Positions 27,772-47,355 are shown, counted from the first letter of the stretch. The stretch: DNA of 64,000 bases from Armatimonadota bacterium (GCA_035528905.1 DATKXU010000082.1:57838-121837), one strand, 5' to 3'. The notes: generated by a model not told the origin, from the sequence alone. Translations and numbers: made by a program.

Positions 27772-30183
27772 ATGCTTCACGCATCCGAGGGCGCCCGGCC
27801 ATTCAGCTACTCGAAGACGGCGGCCTTCTCAGTGCTCGGCGTGTTCGCCTTGGCGGACGGCGCCCGGGCGTCTGAGGCCATCGAGCTTCCGGCCTTTGGC
27901 AGCTTCGAGAACTCGATCCTATGGGTGGTCTTCTTCTCCGCCATCGTCGGCATCCTATTCGGGCTGGGATGGCTGCTCAAGGTTCTGAAAGAGAGTCCCG
28001 GCTCGGCGGCCATGCAAGAGGTATCCGCGGCGGTCCAGGAAGGCGCGATGGCCTACCTGAAGCGCCAGTTCAAGACGATGATCTGGTTCGTAGCGCTAAT
28101 CACCATCGGCCTCTATTTCCTGTATAAGCCTATCTACGCGAGGCCGCAGGAAGCCGCGGTGCCGATAGGGGTTTCCATCGCCTTTCTAATGGGCGTATTC
28201 GCCTCCTACATTGCCGGCTTCGTAGGCATGTATATGGCCGTGCGCGCGAACGTCCGCACTGCGAATGCGGCGCTTTCCAGCTTCAAGAAGGCACTGGCGA
28301 TCGCATTCCAGGCGGGCGCTGTATCGGGCATGGCGACCGTCGGCCTGGGACTCCTCGGCGCGACGATCATCTTCTTCATCTTCCAAGAGCAATCCATGAA
28401 GGTTCTGATCGGCTTCGGCTTCGGCGGATGTCTGGCAGCTCTTTTCATGAGGATCGGAGGCGGCATTTACACGAAGGCGGCCGACGTCGGCGCTGACCTC
28501 GTAGGGAAGATCGAGAAGGGGATCCCCGAGGACGACCCCAGGAACGCGGCGACCATCGCGGACAATGTGGGCGACAACGTGGGCGACTGCGCCGGTATGG
28601 CGGCCGATGTATTCGAGAGCTATGAGGTTACGCTGGTGGCAGCGATCATCCTCGGCGCGGCGGCTGCAGGCGCAGTCGGCGCAGGTAATGTGACGAAGCT
28701 CATCATGTATCCGCTGCTGGTTCGCGCGGTCGGAGTCATAGCCTCCATAATAGGCGTGTTCATGGTTCGAGGGCGCGACGACAGAGATATAGACCCGATG
28801 AAACCGATCAACATCGGCTTCTGGGGATCGGCGATCCTGGCGACGATTGGCTTCAGCGCGGTGAGCTACTGGATGTTCAAGGGCGGCATAGGCCAGTTCA
28901 AATGGTGGCAGTTCGCCGGCGCGAACTTCATGGGCATTGTACTAACGCTGGTGATCGGCAGGTTGACCGAGCACTTCACCGATATTGACAAAGGGCCTGT
29001 GACTGAGGCCGCATATGCCACCAGAACCGGCCCTGCCACTCTCATTCTGACCGGCTTTGCGAGCGGCCTGGAATCGAGCGTCTGGTCAATAGTGGCGATC
29101 GCCGGTGCGATATTCGGATCCTATCTGATATTCGCGGGAAATGCCGCTCTGGCGGCCTATGGAATTGCTCTTTCGGGCCTGGGGCTGCTGACCACGACCG
29201 GCTACATCCTGGCGATGGACACCTACGGCCCGATCTCCGACAATGCAAACGGAATCTTCGAGATGTCCGGCGCGCTCAGGGAGCAGGGCGAAGACTCTCC
29301 TGCCTCCAGGATCGTCGCGAAGCTCGACGCGGTGGGCAACACAACCAAAGCGCTGACCAAGGGGTTTGCGATCGCGACCGCCGTCATCGCCGCGACGGCA
29401 CTTTTCCGCTCCTTCATGGCGGACGCCAACCTGCTGGAAATCGGCCTCCACATCGAGTGGACGGAAGTCTTTATCGGATTCCTCATCGGCGGCGCAGTGC
29501 CGTTCCTGTTCTGCTCGTTCGCCATCAAAGCGGTGAGCCGCGCTGCCTTCCTGCTGGTAGAGGAGGTGCGGCGGCAGTTCCGCGAGCATCCGGGCATCAT
29601 GGATTTCAAGGAGAAGCCCGACTACGCCCGATGCGTGGCAATCAGCACCGCGGCCGCTCAGAAGGAACTTCTCGGCCCTGCAATCCTGGCTGTGGCGACT
29701 CCAATCCTGGTGACATTCGGACTGGGGTACACGGACCCTATGCGCGGCGCGGCGGCATTGGGAGGCTATCTCGCCGGAGCGATCCTGACCGGCCAGCTCA
29801 TGGCCGTCCTGCTTGCGAATTCAGGCGGCCTGTGGGACAACGCCAAGAAGAAGATCGAAGCGGGCCTATTCGGCGGAAAGGGCACTGAGTATCACAAGGC
29901 CGCTGTGGTAGGCGACACCGTCGGCGATCCGTTCAAGGACACCGCCGGCCCGGCGCTGAACCCGCTGATCAAGGTCATGAACCTGGTCGGCATCCTGGCC
30001 GCCCCGATCGCCATTGCTCCGATCGCCCCTGCTGTGAGAACTGCAATAGTGCTGCTAACCGTATTCGCACTTGCCGCGGCAGTCGCATTCAACAAGCGAG
30101 GCGGCATCACGGTCCAGGGGGAAGTCGTAGCGGAGGCGCAAACCGCGGTGGAAGACCTGCCGGAGCCCATCGAGAGCAAGTAG
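27772..30183 (+). CDS. hppA: Membrane-bound proton-translocating pyrophosphatase, K+-independent type (GNTTKA)
   Basis: 803 aa, ~16 TM; motifs GGG(I/V)YTKAADVGADLVGK and DNVGDNVGDCAGMAADVFESY; GNTTKA (Lys) marks K+-independent H+-PPases. Confidence 0.95.
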   Translation: MLHASEGARPFSYSKTAAFSVLGVFALADGARASEAIELPAFGSFENSILWVVFFSAIVGILFGLGWLLKVLKESPGSAAMQEVSAAVQEGAMAYLKRQFKTMIWFVALITIGLYFLYKPIYARPQEAAVPIGVSIAFLMGVFASYIAGFVGMYMAVRANVRTANAALSSFKKALAIAFQAGAVSGMATVGLGLLGATIIFFIFQEQSMKVLIGFGFGGCLAALFMRIGGGIYTKAADVGADLVGKIEKGIPEDDPRNAATIADNVGDNVGDCAGMAADVFESYEVTLVAAIILGAAAAGAVGAGNVTKLIMYPLLVRAVGVIASIIGVFMVRGRDDRDIDPMKPINIGFWGSAILATIGFSAVSYWMFKGGIGQFKWWQFAGANFMGIVLTLVIGRLTEHFTDIDKGPVTEAAYATRTGPATLILTGFASGLESSVWSIVAIAGAIFGSYLIFAGNAALAAYGIALSGLGLLTTTGYILAMDTYGPISDNANGIFEMSGALREQGEDSPASRIVAKLDAVGNTTKALTKGFAIATAVIAATALFRSFMADANLLEIGLHIEWTEVFIGFLIGGAVPFLFCSFAIKAVSRAAFLLVEEVRRQFREHPGIMDFKEKPDYARCVAISTAAAQKELLGPAILAVATPILVTFGLGYTDPMRGAAALGGYLAGAILTGQLMAVLLANSGGLWDNAKKKIEAGLFGGKGTEYHKAAVVGDTVGDPFKDTAGPALNPLIKVMNLVGILAAPIAIAPIAPAVRTAIVLLTVFALAAAVAFNKRGGITVQGEVVAEAQTAVEDLPEPIESK

Positions 30184-30225
30184 GGCTTGGCGCTTCGTCA
30201 TAGTAGGCATGGCTAGAAACACCGA

Positions 30226-30257
30226 GGCCGGGGGTCTTGTGATCCCCGGCCCTTTTA
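30226..30257 (+). terminator. Intrinsic terminator of hppA (GGCCGGGG / CCCCGGCC stem followed by TTTT)
   Basis: 8-bp GC stem 30226-30233 / 30244-30251 with 10-nt loop and a T-tract at 30253-30256. Confidence 0.7.
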
Positions 30258-30457
30258 TGTGCTGGACCCCCATAGTGCAATCCTGTAACGACTTGGAGTT
30301 GTACACTCGTTACATCAGAGCAGGAAAAAAGTGCCTTATGGTGAATCATCTATACAAGGGTCACATTAGGGCATGGCTGGTAGCTTGTGTAAGTACAGAT
30401 GTTTTCTCTAATGTCAGCGCCGATAACGCCGTAGTACCAGTATAGGAGGGGATACTA

Positions 30458-31525
30458 ATGCGACGCAAGGCCGCTACAAAGCCGGACGAGGCGAGCACCA
30501 CCGCCACAGCCCCCATCGAACCGGGAGGTGTGTTCATAAGCCACGTCCACGAGGACGAGCCTCTTGCCGAGGCTTTTGAATTACTTATCCACAACGTAAG
30601 CGCTGGTGTAGTCCCCACTTTCAGATCAACCGCAAAACAGTTTGGTGGGGGAATCCAATACGGCGAGGAATGGTTCCGCTGGATATGTGAAAGCGTAAAC
30701 AAGGCAAAGCACATTGTAGCTCTGCTGACTCCGGCAAGCGTAAGTCGTCCGTGGATTCTATTCGAAGCCGGCCTGGGAAAAGGAAAGTCTGATGGTGTGG
30801 TTTTTGGTGTCGGACTTGGAATTTCCCGCGAAGATGCCTATAAGGGGCCTTTTGCTGCGCTTCAAAACTGCGGCGCAGAAGAAAAAGAACTGGTAAAGCT
30901 GTGCAAGGAATTAATCGAGGGAACTCAGGCAAAACCACGTGACGAGATGATCAGCAAATGTGTTGCGGAATTTCGCGCTACGGTCGAGGCGCATTTCGCG
31001 AACCAGAAATCAGGAAAGAAGGCAAGCGAAGATCCGACCAGCGTTGCGGTCTTTCAAGCGTTGGAAGAAATGAAGCTCATGCTCCGGGATCAAACCCGAA
31101 TGTTTGAAACGGATATGCCAAGGTTTCCCAGGCGAGACCGCGACATTGAGCGCCTTACTATGGTTGTCTTTGAACACTCCGGATTGCTCGAATCTGAACC
31201 AAAACTGCACTTAGCTTTCCTCGCAGGGCTCGCTACTGAACTAGGATACTTCTTCGTAAAGCCGCTTGTCGATTACATAGTAAATTCAAAACAAGCCATC
31301 CCAGGGGAACGTCTTGATGGAATGCACTTCTTGCTGCATGATATGTTTATGCGCCTGGAACCCCGCGGCAAGATGGATCACCATTTGCTTAGAACCATTG
31401 AGCAGGCGCTTCATACACGCCTCGACCAAAGGCTCAGCTCTAAAAACACCGGTTCGCCAGGGAAGTTCACCCCCTCAACTGCCTTAAGGTCAAGGGTTGC
31501 GAAGGCCCGGAGCGACAATCCGTAA
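30458..31525 (+). CDS. TIR-domain protein (bacterial TIR NADase-like) with uncharacterised C-terminal ~200-aa helical domain
   Basis: [16 protein letters not shown] matches the bacterial TIR (D/V)FISHAxEDK box; [12 protein letters not shown] and [10 protein letters not shown] match the WxxxE catalytic-Glu region; RBS AGGAGGGG upstream; gene GC ~50% against ~63% flanking. Confidence 0.8.
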
Positions 31526-31628
31526 GACCGGGAGTTTTGGCTGCCAGGCTGCCAGATGGACATCAGCAGGAAGAAGTTACCTGAGTGGTGAAATGTATGA
31601 TCCGATCCTGCAGAGGAGGATAACCTCC

Positions 31629-31928
31629 ATGAGCTTGCACATCCACGTTAATCCCGAGCAGATAGCCGACTTTTGCCGTCGCAACCATATCCGCAGGCTA
31701 GCTTTCTTTGGGTCGGTTTTGACAGATGAATTTCGCCCGGACAGCGACGTTGATGTTCTGGTGGAATTCGAGCCGAATTACCGCGTCGGTTTGCTGCGCA
31801 TGGCCGAAATGGAAATAGAACTTTCCCGCATCATCGGGCAGAAAGCAGATATGCGGACCCCCAATGACCTGAGCAGGTACTTCAGAGATGAAGTTGTAGC
31901 GAAAGCTGAGGTGCAATATGCTGCCTAA
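31629..31928 (+). CDS. mntA: Nucleotidyltransferase-domain antitoxin MntA (minimal NTase, type VII TA)
   Basis: GS-x9-DxD NTase motif ([22 protein letters not shown]). Start set at ATG 31629, preceded by GAGGAGG; overlaps hepT by 11 nt. Confidence 0.8.
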
Positions 31929-32262
31929 AGACGATGCTATTCGTTTGCGCCATATGCTGGAGGCCGCGCAGGAAGCCGTTGCATTCACCAACAATCGAAA
32001 CAGACAGGACCTCGACGCTGATCGCATGCTAACTTTTGCGCTTGTTCACGCTATTGAGATAATCGGAGAGGCAGCTTCAAAGGTTAGTGCTGAGGGACGA
32101 TCAGCTTGTCCACGTTTACCTTGGACAAGTATTATCGGCATGCGAAACCGACTGATTCATGCGTATTTCGATATTGATCTTGACCGCGTCTGGGAAACGG
32201 TTACTGATGACTTGCCACCATTGATGGCCAAACTGGAAGCGATCATCTCGAAGAACGATTAG
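31918..32262 (+). CDS. hepT: HEPN-domain toxin HepT (DUF86)
   Basis: Rx4HxY HEPN RNase motif (RNRLIHAY); 114 aa; overlapping arrangement with the NTase gene typical of HepT/MntA. Confidence 0.85.
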
Positions 32263-33050
32263 ACTTAGGGCAGCCCTCAAAGTCCCGAATCATCCGCATT
32301 CTGCCCTAGCAGAATCAATTGTTCCAGCCGTTCCACCAGGCTGCGGATCGGGCGGCCTGCGGTATCGGGCCGGCTGGAAAGCTGCCGATACCTCTCCACT
32401 ATCTCCCGACGAACCTCCTGCGGCAAGATCGGGACTAGTATTGACTTTATCCGGTCGAAGTTGATTCCACACGGGCCGACGCCGCATTTCTCGCGGTGGA
32501 TCTGAAGGCGGGCGAACCGCGTTTGCAGGTAGACCGCCAGGTACTCCGGCTCTACATCTCTGACACGCACGAGATTGATGTGCTGGCTGATATTGCACGG
32601 CTCGTCCGAGTAGAAGACCGCCGCCCGGCCGATGCACCCTACCCCACTGTTTGCCAGAAGCAGGTCGCCCTTTTGTAGTCGGCTCCGCGCCGGATCATTA
32701 CGAGAGCCTGGTGGCACAAACCGTTCGGGTGAACGGATATCCACCCCGATCACGAAGCCCTCGCCGGTTGTGACGAGGTTCGCAGGTGTCAGCAGCCGGA
32801 CGCCGGATTCCGCCAACTCCCGTTTCCCCACCTGGCCGTAAGTCGTGTACTCGATCAATTCGCCCAAAGTGACCGCGTTCGGCAGGCCCCTCAGGAGGCG
32901 GAGGTTTTCGGTGTATTTACGGTGATAGTAGGCAGGATCCAATCTGTCGCCTGGGGACAAGATTTCCGCCGGAAAGACCACCCACGGCAGGCATTCGATT
33001 TCGGACTTGTCCGCCGGAGCCTTGGCATAGGAGGATTTGGGATTTCGGGT

Positions 33051-33178
33051 TGCGGATTGACCTACCCCCCTTCCTGCCTCCCCCCGAAGCGGAGGGAGGA
33101 GCACCTTCTCCCCTCTCCGCATCGGAGAGGGGCCGGGGGTGAGGTTTGGCTCGTCGGCTGCCGACCACTGTGCAAAAT
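33051..33178. repeat. Dispersed ~100-130-bp repeat, copy 1, inside the methyltransferase reading frame
   Basis: ~96% identical over ~95 bp to 47251-47355 (gcggagggaggagcaccttctcccctctccgcatcggagag...gaggtttggct.gtcggctgccgacca.tgtgcaaaat). Contains palindrome GTCGGCTGCCGAC and an imperfect hairpin; copy 1 has a 26-bp C-rich insertion. Confidence 0.75.
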
Positions 33179-33641
33179 CGGCGAACTGCTCGGCCAGGCG
33201 CTCAATTCCAGCCTGCCAGGAGGCACGAGATTCGAGTGCGGCGCTGAATACACGGCCCGGAAGCGCAGGATTCCTCTGGAAAACCAATACACTGGCCTTC
33301 GAAGCCGCGCCGGTGCGGTAAAACGTGTGCCGGGGAAGGCTGACAATCGCCCTGATCGCCGCGCGGCTCGAGAGCCATTCACGCACGTAGGAAAGCCGTG
33401 CGTTCGCCAGGATTCCGTCAGGCACAACCATCGCGACGTATCCGCCCGGCCTCGCAAGCTGCCAGAAGCGCTCCAGAAAGAGCACCTCGATCCGATACTT
33501 GGCGAGATCGGCGGCGTGTTGTCCATCCCGCCATATCGTGAAGTTTTCCCTGATGGCGCGAGCGAGCTGCTCGAAGTCCGGCGACGATCTCAGGCTCAAT
33601 GTGCCGAATGGAGGATTGCCGACGACCCAGTCGAAAGGAGT

Positions 33642-33684
33642 ATGGGGGTATGGGAGTGTGGGTGGATGGGAGTGTGGGTGGATG
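33642..33684. repeat. Tandem 16-bp duplication (ATGGGAGTGTGGGTGG x2, partial third) adjacent to a G5 tract, inside the methyltransferase
   Basis: Read directly: tatgggggtatgggagtgtgggtggatgggagtgtgggtggatg. On the coding strand it encodes the His/Pro/Thr-rich linker HTPIHPHSHTP. Confidence 0.8.
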
Positions 33685-34016
33685 TAGTTCTGTCCACATC
33701 TCCCAGTACGCATAAGCCGTCGCCGATGAAAAGGTTCGCGCGGCCCAGCAAGCCGTTTTCTTTCCAGGCTGCCGCCATCCGATTGTCTTTCTCGATGCCG
33801 AAAAGCCGATCTGGAGAAGTAATGCCGTGCTCCAGGGCATAGGCCAGAAAAGCACCTTCGCCGCACGCAGGGTCAATAATGCGCGGACACCGGGCATTGG
33901 AATCGAGGGCTCGGAGCATACGGTAGCACAGTTCGACTACCGGCTCGGGGGTGAAGTACTGGCCGAGCATCCTGGCGCGATCCATGCCCTGATATAGCAC
34001 AGAAACCCGCGCGTGG

Positions 34017-47250: not shown

Positions 47251-47355
47251 TGCGGATTGCCCAAAGCGGAGGGAGGAGCACCTTCTCCCCTCTCCGCATC
47301 GGAGAGAAGCCGGGGCTGAGGTTTGGCTGGTCGGCTGCCGACCAGTGTGCAAAAT
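47251..47355. repeat. Dispersed ~100-bp repeat, copy 2 (5' leader of the DUF1559 gene)
   Basis: ~96% identical to 33051-33178 minus that copy's 26-bp insertion; immediately followed by a terminator-like hairpin. Confidence 0.75.

Follow-up and report, generated by a model that had tools for sequence, protein, structure and literature searches.

The gene TIR-X lies on the forward strand of a 64,000-nucleotide stretch of DNA from an Armatimonadota bacterium (GCA_035528905.1, DATKXU010000082.1:57838-121837), and this whole stretch is referred to here as the window. The coding sequence occupies positions 30458..31525, in agreement with the coordinates given in an earlier note made from the sequence of the window alone, and encodes 355 amino acids plus a stop codon. 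An N-terminal TIR domain is followed by an all-alpha C-terminal domain (C-domain). With a probability of roughly one in two, TIR-X is a self-contained, single-gene, SpbK-like TIR NADase with an antiviral role, in which the fast-evolving C-domain senses a trigger or restrains the TIR domain. This reading combines sequence conservation, a structure model, and analogy with characterized TIR proteins. An SpbK-like NADase is favored because the best fold relatives of the TIR domain (SpbK, SPARTA, plant TIRs, and AbTir) are all NADases. A single-gene unit is favored because the TIR domain and the C-domain share one open reading frame (ORF) in 74 of 77 family loci and no neighboring gene is recurrent. 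The earlier note had offered a stand-alone, NAD+-depleting defense protein as one option for this gene, and the analysis points to that option as the best explanation.

The TIR domain and its catalytic motif

An AlphaFold model of TIR-X was built on 35 family sequences. The full-length model has a mean predicted local distance difference test score (pLDDT) of 80.4, with most of the TIR core between 85 and 98. The core comprises residues 23-155 (30524..30922; this and all other TIR-X features are on the forward strand) and is defined by the model, Foldseek, Pfam TIR_2, and a profile comparison with SpbK. It contains five strands (residues 24-28, 54-56, 83-90, 114-119, and 136-138), which alternate with helices at residues 31-48, 70-82, 98-108, 124-134, and 142-152. 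The best Foldseek match to TIR-X in the PDB is the SpbK TIR filament (PDB 9phb) with an E-value of 7.8e-5, and it is followed by SPARTA TIR-APAZ, the plant proteins RUN1/RPS4/RPP1, AbTir, and MyD88. The top 50 matches are mostly TIR domains, and all of the best-scoring matches are TIR. A profile of the family's TIR region matches SpbK with an E-value of 3e-5. Pfam TIR_2 matches TIR-X with an E-value of 1.2e-5 and 26.2 bits. The Pfam match is marginal by itself, and the identity of the domain is settled by its fold.

The TIR hallmarks listed in the earlier note are all present. These are F-I-S-H at residues 26-29, G69-x-x-W72, and the block S94...R97-P98-W99-I-L-F-E103-A-G105. The last of these contains the putative catalytic motif W99-I-L-F-E103-A-G105 (W-x3-E-x-G; 30752..30772), in which the E103 codon occupies nucleotides 30764-30766. 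W99, E103, and G105 are invariant among 35 homologues. When the family TIR profile is aligned to SpbK, the motif region is paired with the SpbK segment D-S-V-Y-C-L-N-E-M-G and E103 falls on the SpbK catalytic Glu. The NADase activity and filament mechanism of SpbK have been described, and its Y188 and E192 coordinate NAD+ and catalyze its cleavage in a composite active site that arises by head-to-tail stacking of TIR domains (PMC12847820). E103 is the presumed catalytic glutamate of TIR-X, because it is aligned with the SpbK catalytic Glu in a W-x3-E context. The earlier note had proposed such a conserved Glu and had allowed that it might prove misaligned and absent; it is in register with SpbK and kept across the family. 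The conservation of the motif suggests that TIR-X is catalytically competent.

The same residue was followed in 29 full-length proteins that were retrieved with the C-domain alone. These proteins were not chosen for a TIR motif, so the check on the Glu is unbiased. The W-x3-E-x-G motif is carried by 27 of them, and a Glu is kept at the catalytic position in 29 of 29. The remaining two proteins have another TIR-like module that contains N-V-F-Y-E-L.

A further invariant segment that is specific to the family, G130-P131-F132...Q136-N137 (30845..30868), is located in the loop and strand that precede the last TIR helix. A BE (head-to-tail) interface has been described for SpbK, SARM1, and AbTir (PMC12847820). 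By analogy, the G130-P131-F132...Q136-N137 segment may help form this interface or the adenine side of a composite active site.

The C-terminal domain

The TIR core is followed by a moderately conserved linker (30923..31027) that includes a long helix (residues 162-185) with an invariant F172. The first helix of the C-domain (residues 193-217; 31028..31108) has a pLDDT of 96 when the domain is modeled by itself. This helix carries E203-E204-M-K206 (nucleotides 31064-31075), the sole near-invariant motif of the C-domain; E203, E204, and K206 are present in 97% of 139 members. An arginine-rich, disordered linker (residues 218-227; 31109..31138; pLDDT <50) comes next. Canonical members carry R-R-R-R-F-H-P-M-M in this linker and the window protein does not. 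The remainder of the domain is a soluble, all-alpha bundle of six helices (residues 228-330; 31139..31447; pLDDT about 80-92), after which the protein ends in a basic, low-confidence tail that is not conserved (residues 331-355; 31448..31522). Residues ~191-330, modeled alone, again form an all-alpha bundle with a pLDDT of 81. The helical character given to the C-terminal domain in the earlier note is therefore borne out by the model, but its size of ~200 amino acids is not, as the C-domain has ~165 amino acids, about 30 of which belong to the disordered tail.

The two parts of the protein differ in conservation. Among the 139 members, the mean frequency of the most common residue is 0.72 in the TIR domain and 0.39 in the bundle. 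The bundle evolves faster than the TIR domain, which is the pattern expected of an enzyme core joined to a diversifying sensor.

The C-domain matches no Pfam family at E-values up to 10 and has no match in NCBIfam, and PADLOC supplies no known fold for it either. Its profile has no sequence relative in the PDB, and its fold has no relative among the viral structures of BFVD, where the best E-value is 0.7. Domain and fold searches give no likeness to SAVED, STING, or APAZ. The statement in the earlier note that this region matches no recognized domain holds across Pfam, NCBIfam, PDB profile, and BFVD searches, and none of them places it in a known family. The maximum hydropathy over 19 residues is 1.35 for TIR-X, the family median is 1.19, and just 6 of the 139 members exceed 1.6. 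A membrane effector, an idea raised by a likeness to the PADLOC model 'TIR-TM', is ruled out by the hydropathy of TIR-X and of these members.

Family architecture and distribution

The C-domain profile was searched against 1.84 billion representatives, with clustering at 50% identity. It retrieves 595 clusters at E<=1e-3 and 337 at E<=1e-10. The match sits at the C-terminal end every time and begins at approximately residue 185-200 in full-length proteins. In the annotated database, TIR_2 is the only Pfam domain that ever accompanies the C-domain, and a TIR or TIR-like module precedes it in every full-length protein examined. Short matches that appear to contain only the C-domain either start inside a TIR domain or are split or truncated gene calls. 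A few apparent fusions of the C-domain, to ATP-grasp, to a flavodoxin-like protein, and to an intron reverse-transcriptase fragment, are each found in single short proteins with partial domains, and are taken as artefacts. The C-domain is a genuine recurrent domain despite having no known relative. The TIR-X family can be defined as proteins of ~330-390 amino acids that combine a TIR domain with W-x3-E-x-G and an all-alpha C-domain opened by E-E-x-K, and the window protein has all of these features.

The C-domain is not confined to one kind of N-terminal module. In two metagenome proteins, P0113 and P0174 (341 and 348 amino acids), it stands behind a different Rossmann-like module with the sequence C-F-V-I-S-P-I-G...N-P-N-V-F-Y-E-L-A. 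This module has no Pfam family and matches the PADLOC CBASS model 'Effector TIR' with an E-value of 5e-9. When the family TIR profile is compared with the P0113 module by hhalign, Glu falls on Glu, but the E-value of 0.16 is not significant. The module is called TIR-like because of the PADLOC match and not because of the hhalign comparison. P0113 and P0174 seem to represent a second and less common architecture within the family. The reverse exchange is seen in P0040 (566 amino acids, on a 99.6-kb contig), where the family TIR domain is joined to a different C-terminus of ~395 amino acids with a faint match to DUF7624. Swaps in both directions are typical of the mix-and-match evolution of conflict systems.

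The genome scan covered one genome per species for 185,579 species and gave 155 family matches. Locus surveys rest on the 80 best of these 155 relatives, and ORF and clustering counts on 77 loci. More than 10 phyla are represented among the 80 best. These include the Armatimonadota, Acidobacteriota, Bacteroidota, Beta-, Gamma-, and Deltaproteobacteria, and Planctomycetota, and also the Cyanobacteriota, Spirochaetota, Nitrospirota, Chloroflexota, and Actinomycetota. Such a sparse and patchy spread is typical of defense genes that move horizontally.

Where the TIR domain and the C-domain are encoded together, the single ORF has 328-414 amino acids. The other three of the 77 loci have the two domains in separate adjacent or overlapping ORFs (L065:7998-8956, L085:7914-9058, and L049:7947-8963). 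These are probably frameshift errors in metagenome-assembled genomes (MAGs) or pseudogenes and not a true two-gene version.

Comparison with known systems

By both fold and profile, the nearest solved TIR domain is that of SpbK (PDB 9phb), an abortive-infection TIR NADase from ICEBs1 of Bacillus subtilis. Like TIR-X, SpbK is a single-protein system with an F-I-S-H start and an aligned catalytic Glu. Both proteins consist of one TIR domain and one non-catalytic domain that is presumed or shown to sense the trigger. The domain order differs. In SpbK the sensor is N-terminal and the TIR domain is C-terminal; in TIR-X the TIR domain (residues 23-155) comes first. The sequence alignment covers only the first ~85 residues of the TIR domain, and the TIR-X C-domain is unlike any part of SpbK. 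A mobile element carries SpbK; TIR-X is for the most part a chromosomal, isolated gene. The trigger of SpbK is the YonE portal protein, and no counterpart is known for TIR-X.

The single-protein TIR systems of Escherichia coli (TIR-II, -V, -VI, and -IX) give protection against phages that depends on the TIR active site (PMC11350192). They resemble TIR-X in being encoded by one gene, and provide a precedent for a lone TIR domain with unannotated sequence as a complete antiphage system (PMC11350192). Judged by their descriptions alone, TIR-V, -VI, and -IX are short, TIR-only proteins and TIR-II has TPR repeats; none has an all-alpha C-domain of ~165 amino acids. No E. coli genome is present among the 80 best family loci.

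The best profile matches that extend beyond the TIR core are PADLOC PDLC03016, named 'TIR-TM' (E-value 1.3e-7), and phrog_13899 (E-value 3.1e-9). Both cover residues 66 to ~215. TIR-X aligns to positions 39-194 of the 293 positions of PDLC03016 with 29.8 bits. P0015, a canonical member, aligns to positions 36-283 of the same 293 with 44 bits and an E-value of 6e-12. Because the P0015 alignment runs across nearly the entire model, a remote kinship of the whole two-part architecture with 'TIR-TM' is likely. TIR-X probably does not belong to the same family as 'TIR-TM' or phrog_13899, because the scores are low (30-44 bits). In addition, the name 'TIR-TM' implies a membrane segment, while TIR-X and its relatives are soluble. 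A literature search found no paper describing 'TIR-TM' or an architecture of TIR plus an all-alpha C-domain.

The order of a TIR effector followed by a regulatory or sensor domain is also found in TIR-SAVED and TIR-STING (CBASS) and in TIR-APAZ (SPARTA), which are activated by sensor-driven oligomerization of the TIR domains. The TIR-X TIR domain has SPARTA TIR-APAZ chains among its best matches by fold. SAVED, STING, and APAZ, however, have alpha/beta folds and respond to a signal or partner from an adjacent gene (a CD-NTase or a short prokaryotic Argonaute), and the TIR-X C-domain is all-alpha. Features of CBASS and Pycsar are not found in the family: no adjacent CD-NTase or Pyc cyclase is recurrent, and no SAVED, STING, or cyclic nucleotide-binding domain is fused. 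Features of SPARTA are likewise not found, as the C-domain has no APAZ-like fold and a prokaryotic Argonaute is a nearest neighbor in only 1 of 142 cases.

By analogy, SpbK and the single-protein E. coli systems would be closest to TIR-X in mode of action, yet TIR-X lacks defining features of each family with which it was compared. Domain order places it outside the SpbK family; the fold of the sensor and the adjacent partner place it outside TIR-SAVED, TIR-STING, and TIR-APAZ. TIR-X joins a known effector logic to a previously undescribed accessory domain.

Gene neighborhoods across the family

Neighboring genes were compared by all-versus-all clustering of the 723 ORFs within 5 kb of family genes in the 77 loci, and the 142 nearest neighbors were scanned with Pfam and PADLOC. 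A conserved partner gene of any kind was rejected, as the commonest neighbor family is an integrase in 5 of 77 loci. Each Pfam family is represented in at most 2 of the 142 nearest neighbors. PADLOC models matched among these neighbors are dGTPase (twice), HamA, a type II restriction endonuclease, AbiTii, prokaryotic Argonaute, and PDC-S31 (once each), and several methyltransferase models. This is a mild enrichment of defense genes at best.

Individual loci have a more varied setting. For example, an integrase, AbiJ, and a MORC-like ATPase adjoin the TIR-X homologue at the P0013 locus, and an RHS toxin is nearby at the P0037 locus. In three loci (including L016:9125-10360), the gene directly adjoining the TIR-X homologue encodes a protein with a TIR-like part and helical repeats that matches PADLOC 'Effector TIR' with an E-value of 3e-9. 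In three loci (including L079:5333-6805), the adjoining gene encodes a dGTPase-like HD protein that matches PADLOC dGTPase with an E-value of 3e-19. These recurrent adjoining genes may mark small defense clusters in a minority of genomes.

Proposed mechanism and alternative explanations

If TIR-X is an SpbK-like NADase, the C-domain and the long linker helix would keep the TIR domains apart or occluded in the resting state (autoinhibition). The fast-evolving C-domain would recognize a trigger, which is most likely a phage protein or some change induced by infection. The TIR domains would then stack head-to-tail into assemblies of two strands that contain composite active sites, where E103 would cleave NAD+, releasing nicotinamide together with ADP-ribose or a cyclic ADP-ribose (cADPR) isomer. 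The resulting collapse of NAD+ would leave the infected cell no longer able to support phage growth (abortive infection).

Several results weigh against an antiviral NADase of this kind. Most of the nearest neighbors are housekeeping enzymes and transporters (e.g., methylmalonyl-CoA mutase, KdpA, thymidylate synthase, and ThiG). Only about 8-10 of the 142 are defense-type genes in the PADLOC scan, so the usual defense-island argument is weak. The three closest homologues (63% and 54-46% identity) lie between glycoside hydrolases, a radical-SAM enzyme, or amino-acid metabolism genes. Mobile and viral sequences contain few relatives: plasmids give just 5 weak matches, to the TIR part only, phage genomes give 1 family match, and there is 1 true family member among 2.9 million viral contigs. 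The Pfam TIR_2 score is just under the gathering score of 28 bits. The mutual placement of the TIR domain and the C-domain in the AlphaFold model is uncertain, with a predicted template modeling score (pTM) of 0.52. Finally, the window protein has neither F-H-P-M-M nor P-W-L-Y, the family's two best C-domain motifs. It belongs to a divergent branch of a family in which the majority carries both, and its sensor part may therefore work differently from that of canonical members, or less well.

The housekeeping neighborhoods suit a different role, in which TIR-X would be a non-immune, physiological switch that cleaves NAD+ or another nucleotide in stress, dormancy, or metabolic regulation, with the C-domain sensing an endogenous cue. 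This role is unlikely. It would fit a gene that is mostly alone among housekeeping genes and nearly absent from plasmids, phages, and viral contigs, and it would fit the strong conservation of the TIR core across phyla. However, 155 matches in 185,579 species genomes are too sparse and patchy for a housekeeping regulator, no metabolic neighbor is conserved, and the gene lies in variable, defense-flavored islets in the window and at several other loci. A related proposal centers on the C-domain as a previously unrecognized sensor or regulator that has been joined independently, at least twice, to NAD+-cleaving modules, once to a classical TIR domain and once to a second, TIR-like module. The protein would then be a chromosomal switch, governed by an endogenous or small-molecule cue and acting on NAD+ or nucleotide pools (e.g., in dormancy or stress), and not an Abi system of the SpbK type with a phage protein as trigger. 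This would explain why TIR-X is usually alone among housekeeping genes, and it is doubtful to a similar degree.

TIR-X could also act in trans as a Thoeris-like signal generator, producing a nucleotide signal, of the cADPR type or another, for an unlinked effector. TIR-X has weak matches to ThsB models (E-values 0.018-0.031), and these are stronger in its relatives (E-value 4.5e-5). A short TIR protein in the PDB, 8wcf ('Molecular chaperone Tir'), has a motif similar to the R-P-W-x-x-x-E of TIR-X, and the Trp of W-x3-E is at the position linked to the formation of cADPR isomers in AbTir-type cyclizing TIRs. Against this, ThsB proteins do not have the TIR-X C-domain, and a large, dedicated C-domain is more in keeping with a sensor or regulator than with a bare signal synthase. 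All known TIR signaling systems encode the effector beside the producer. No ThsA-type effector (SIR2-SLOG or Macro/TM) adjoins the gene in the window or in the surveyed loci (77 loci, 142 neighbors), and no SIR2/SLOG, Macro, or other effector family recurs beside it there. A signal generator in trans is accordingly improbable.

Still less probable is a catalytically silent TIR domain that serves as a scaffold or adaptor, as in animal TLR/MyD88, or a TIR domain that acts on nucleic acids and not on NAD+. Pure-adaptor TIRs do exist, and MyD88, TRAM, and MAL are among the fold matches of TIR-X; the arginine-rich C-domain segment of canonical members could bind nucleic acid. An adaptor, however, would not need the catalytic Glu and its W/G context, which are invariant family-wide. 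The nearest structural and sequence relatives are NADases, and there is no conserved partner to scaffold.

The gene and its islet in the window

The TIR-X ORF is intact. It is not a chance ORF, because 7 contigs from independent metagenome samples encode the identical protein, which is also annotated in an Armatimonadota MAG, and because there are 41 homologous clusters, the best with an E-value of 1e-129. From reading of the sequence, a Shine-Dalgarno AGGAGG (30444..30449, forward strand) is located 8 nucleotides 5' of the ATG. Farther upstream, an intrinsic-terminator-like hairpin with a T-run (30226..30251, forward strand) has an 11-bp stem with 9 GC pairs and the tail CTTTTATGTG. This hairpin ends the upstream H+-pyrophosphatase gene and is the 5' boundary of the TIR-X transcription unit. 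A search of the TIR-X leader for regulatory RNA gave 0 Rfam matches, and its folding is not unusual.

The GC content is 0.51-0.54 at positions 30001-32000 compared with about 0.60 in the flanks. TIR-X, an MntA/HepT pair, and a probably decayed methyltransferase gene of the restriction-modification type form a small foreign islet between the H+-pyrophosphatase gene and a heparinase II/III-like gene. The MntA-like nucleotidyltransferase gene (31629-31928, forward strand) matches the PADLOC candidate family PDC-S09 with an E-value of 1e-22. The gene for the HepT RNase (31918-32262, forward strand) overlaps it by 11 nucleotides, and the two form a complete type VII toxin-antitoxin pair.

The earlier note had raised the prospect of a new arrangement or signaling partnership between TIR-X and this HEPN/MNT pair. 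The window MntA and HepT were searched by blastp and tblastn against the 80 family loci. HepT is found in 0 of 80 and an MNT-like gene in 1 of 80. This lack of co-occurrence led to the rejection of an MNT/HEPN partnership, and with it of a three-gene system of TIR-X and MNT/HEPN. The wider survey of neighborhoods that the earlier note had proposed, for MntA/HepT or other effectors, likewise gives no conserved partner (80 loci; 142 neighbors), and no neighbor family exceeds 5 of 77 loci. That the HEPN RNase is released or activated by a nucleotide signal from TIR-X is hardly credible: the genes lie side by side in the same orientation without an intervening terminator-like site, and the order of TIR-X followed by MntA/HepT is identical in independent samples of the same organism, but the co-occurrence counts stand against it, the closest homologues have entirely different neighbors, the pair is complete as a toxin-antitoxin, and neither of its proteins has a signal-sensing domain. 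TIR-X and MntA/HepT are independent passengers that share one low-GC islet.

The adjacent methyltransferase gene (32277-34000, reverse strand) encodes an N6-adenine DNA methyltransferase whose specificity domain is type-I-S-like. It is split into two overlapping ORFs, one with the motif I part (33596-34000) and one with the NPPF motif and the target recognition domain (32277-33866). The split falls at an imperfect tandem repeat (33637-33684) of three 16-nucleotide units, or six 8-nucleotide units. The two frames are offset by 2 nucleotides, so the loss of an 8-nucleotide unit or the gain of a 16-nucleotide unit would fuse the ORFs. The gene is probably decayed or phase-variable, and the split could be an assembly error.

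The window also contains two copies (33083-33178 and 47260-47355; 94% identical) of a 96-nucleotide repeat with a GC-rich hairpin that is like a miniature inverted-repeat transposable element (MITE). The first copy lies inside the methyltransferase ORF, where it codes for an odd 'PSPMRRGE..LPPLRGEAGRGV' segment. In other samples, the short-read contigs of this organism break at this MITE-like element. The only Rfam matches in the islet, which are sub-threshold and to miRNA-like hairpins, also lie on it.

Significance for bacterial TIR proteins

For the window, the analysis gives no new three-gene system of TIR, MntA, and HepT. For the family, it describes compact (~350 amino acids), soluble, partner-free proteins whose C-domain occurs with two different TIR-type modules. 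TIR NADases that act as single proteins are emerging as a class of bacterial immunity, and their recognition of infection would lie in the non-TIR domain. If TIR-X gives no protection from phages, the housekeeping neighborhoods of the family would suggest that bacteria use TIR NADases outside immunity. If it does protect, the C-domain would be a new sensor fold among TIR proteins, and TIR-X would provide a simple model of trigger-induced TIR assembly.

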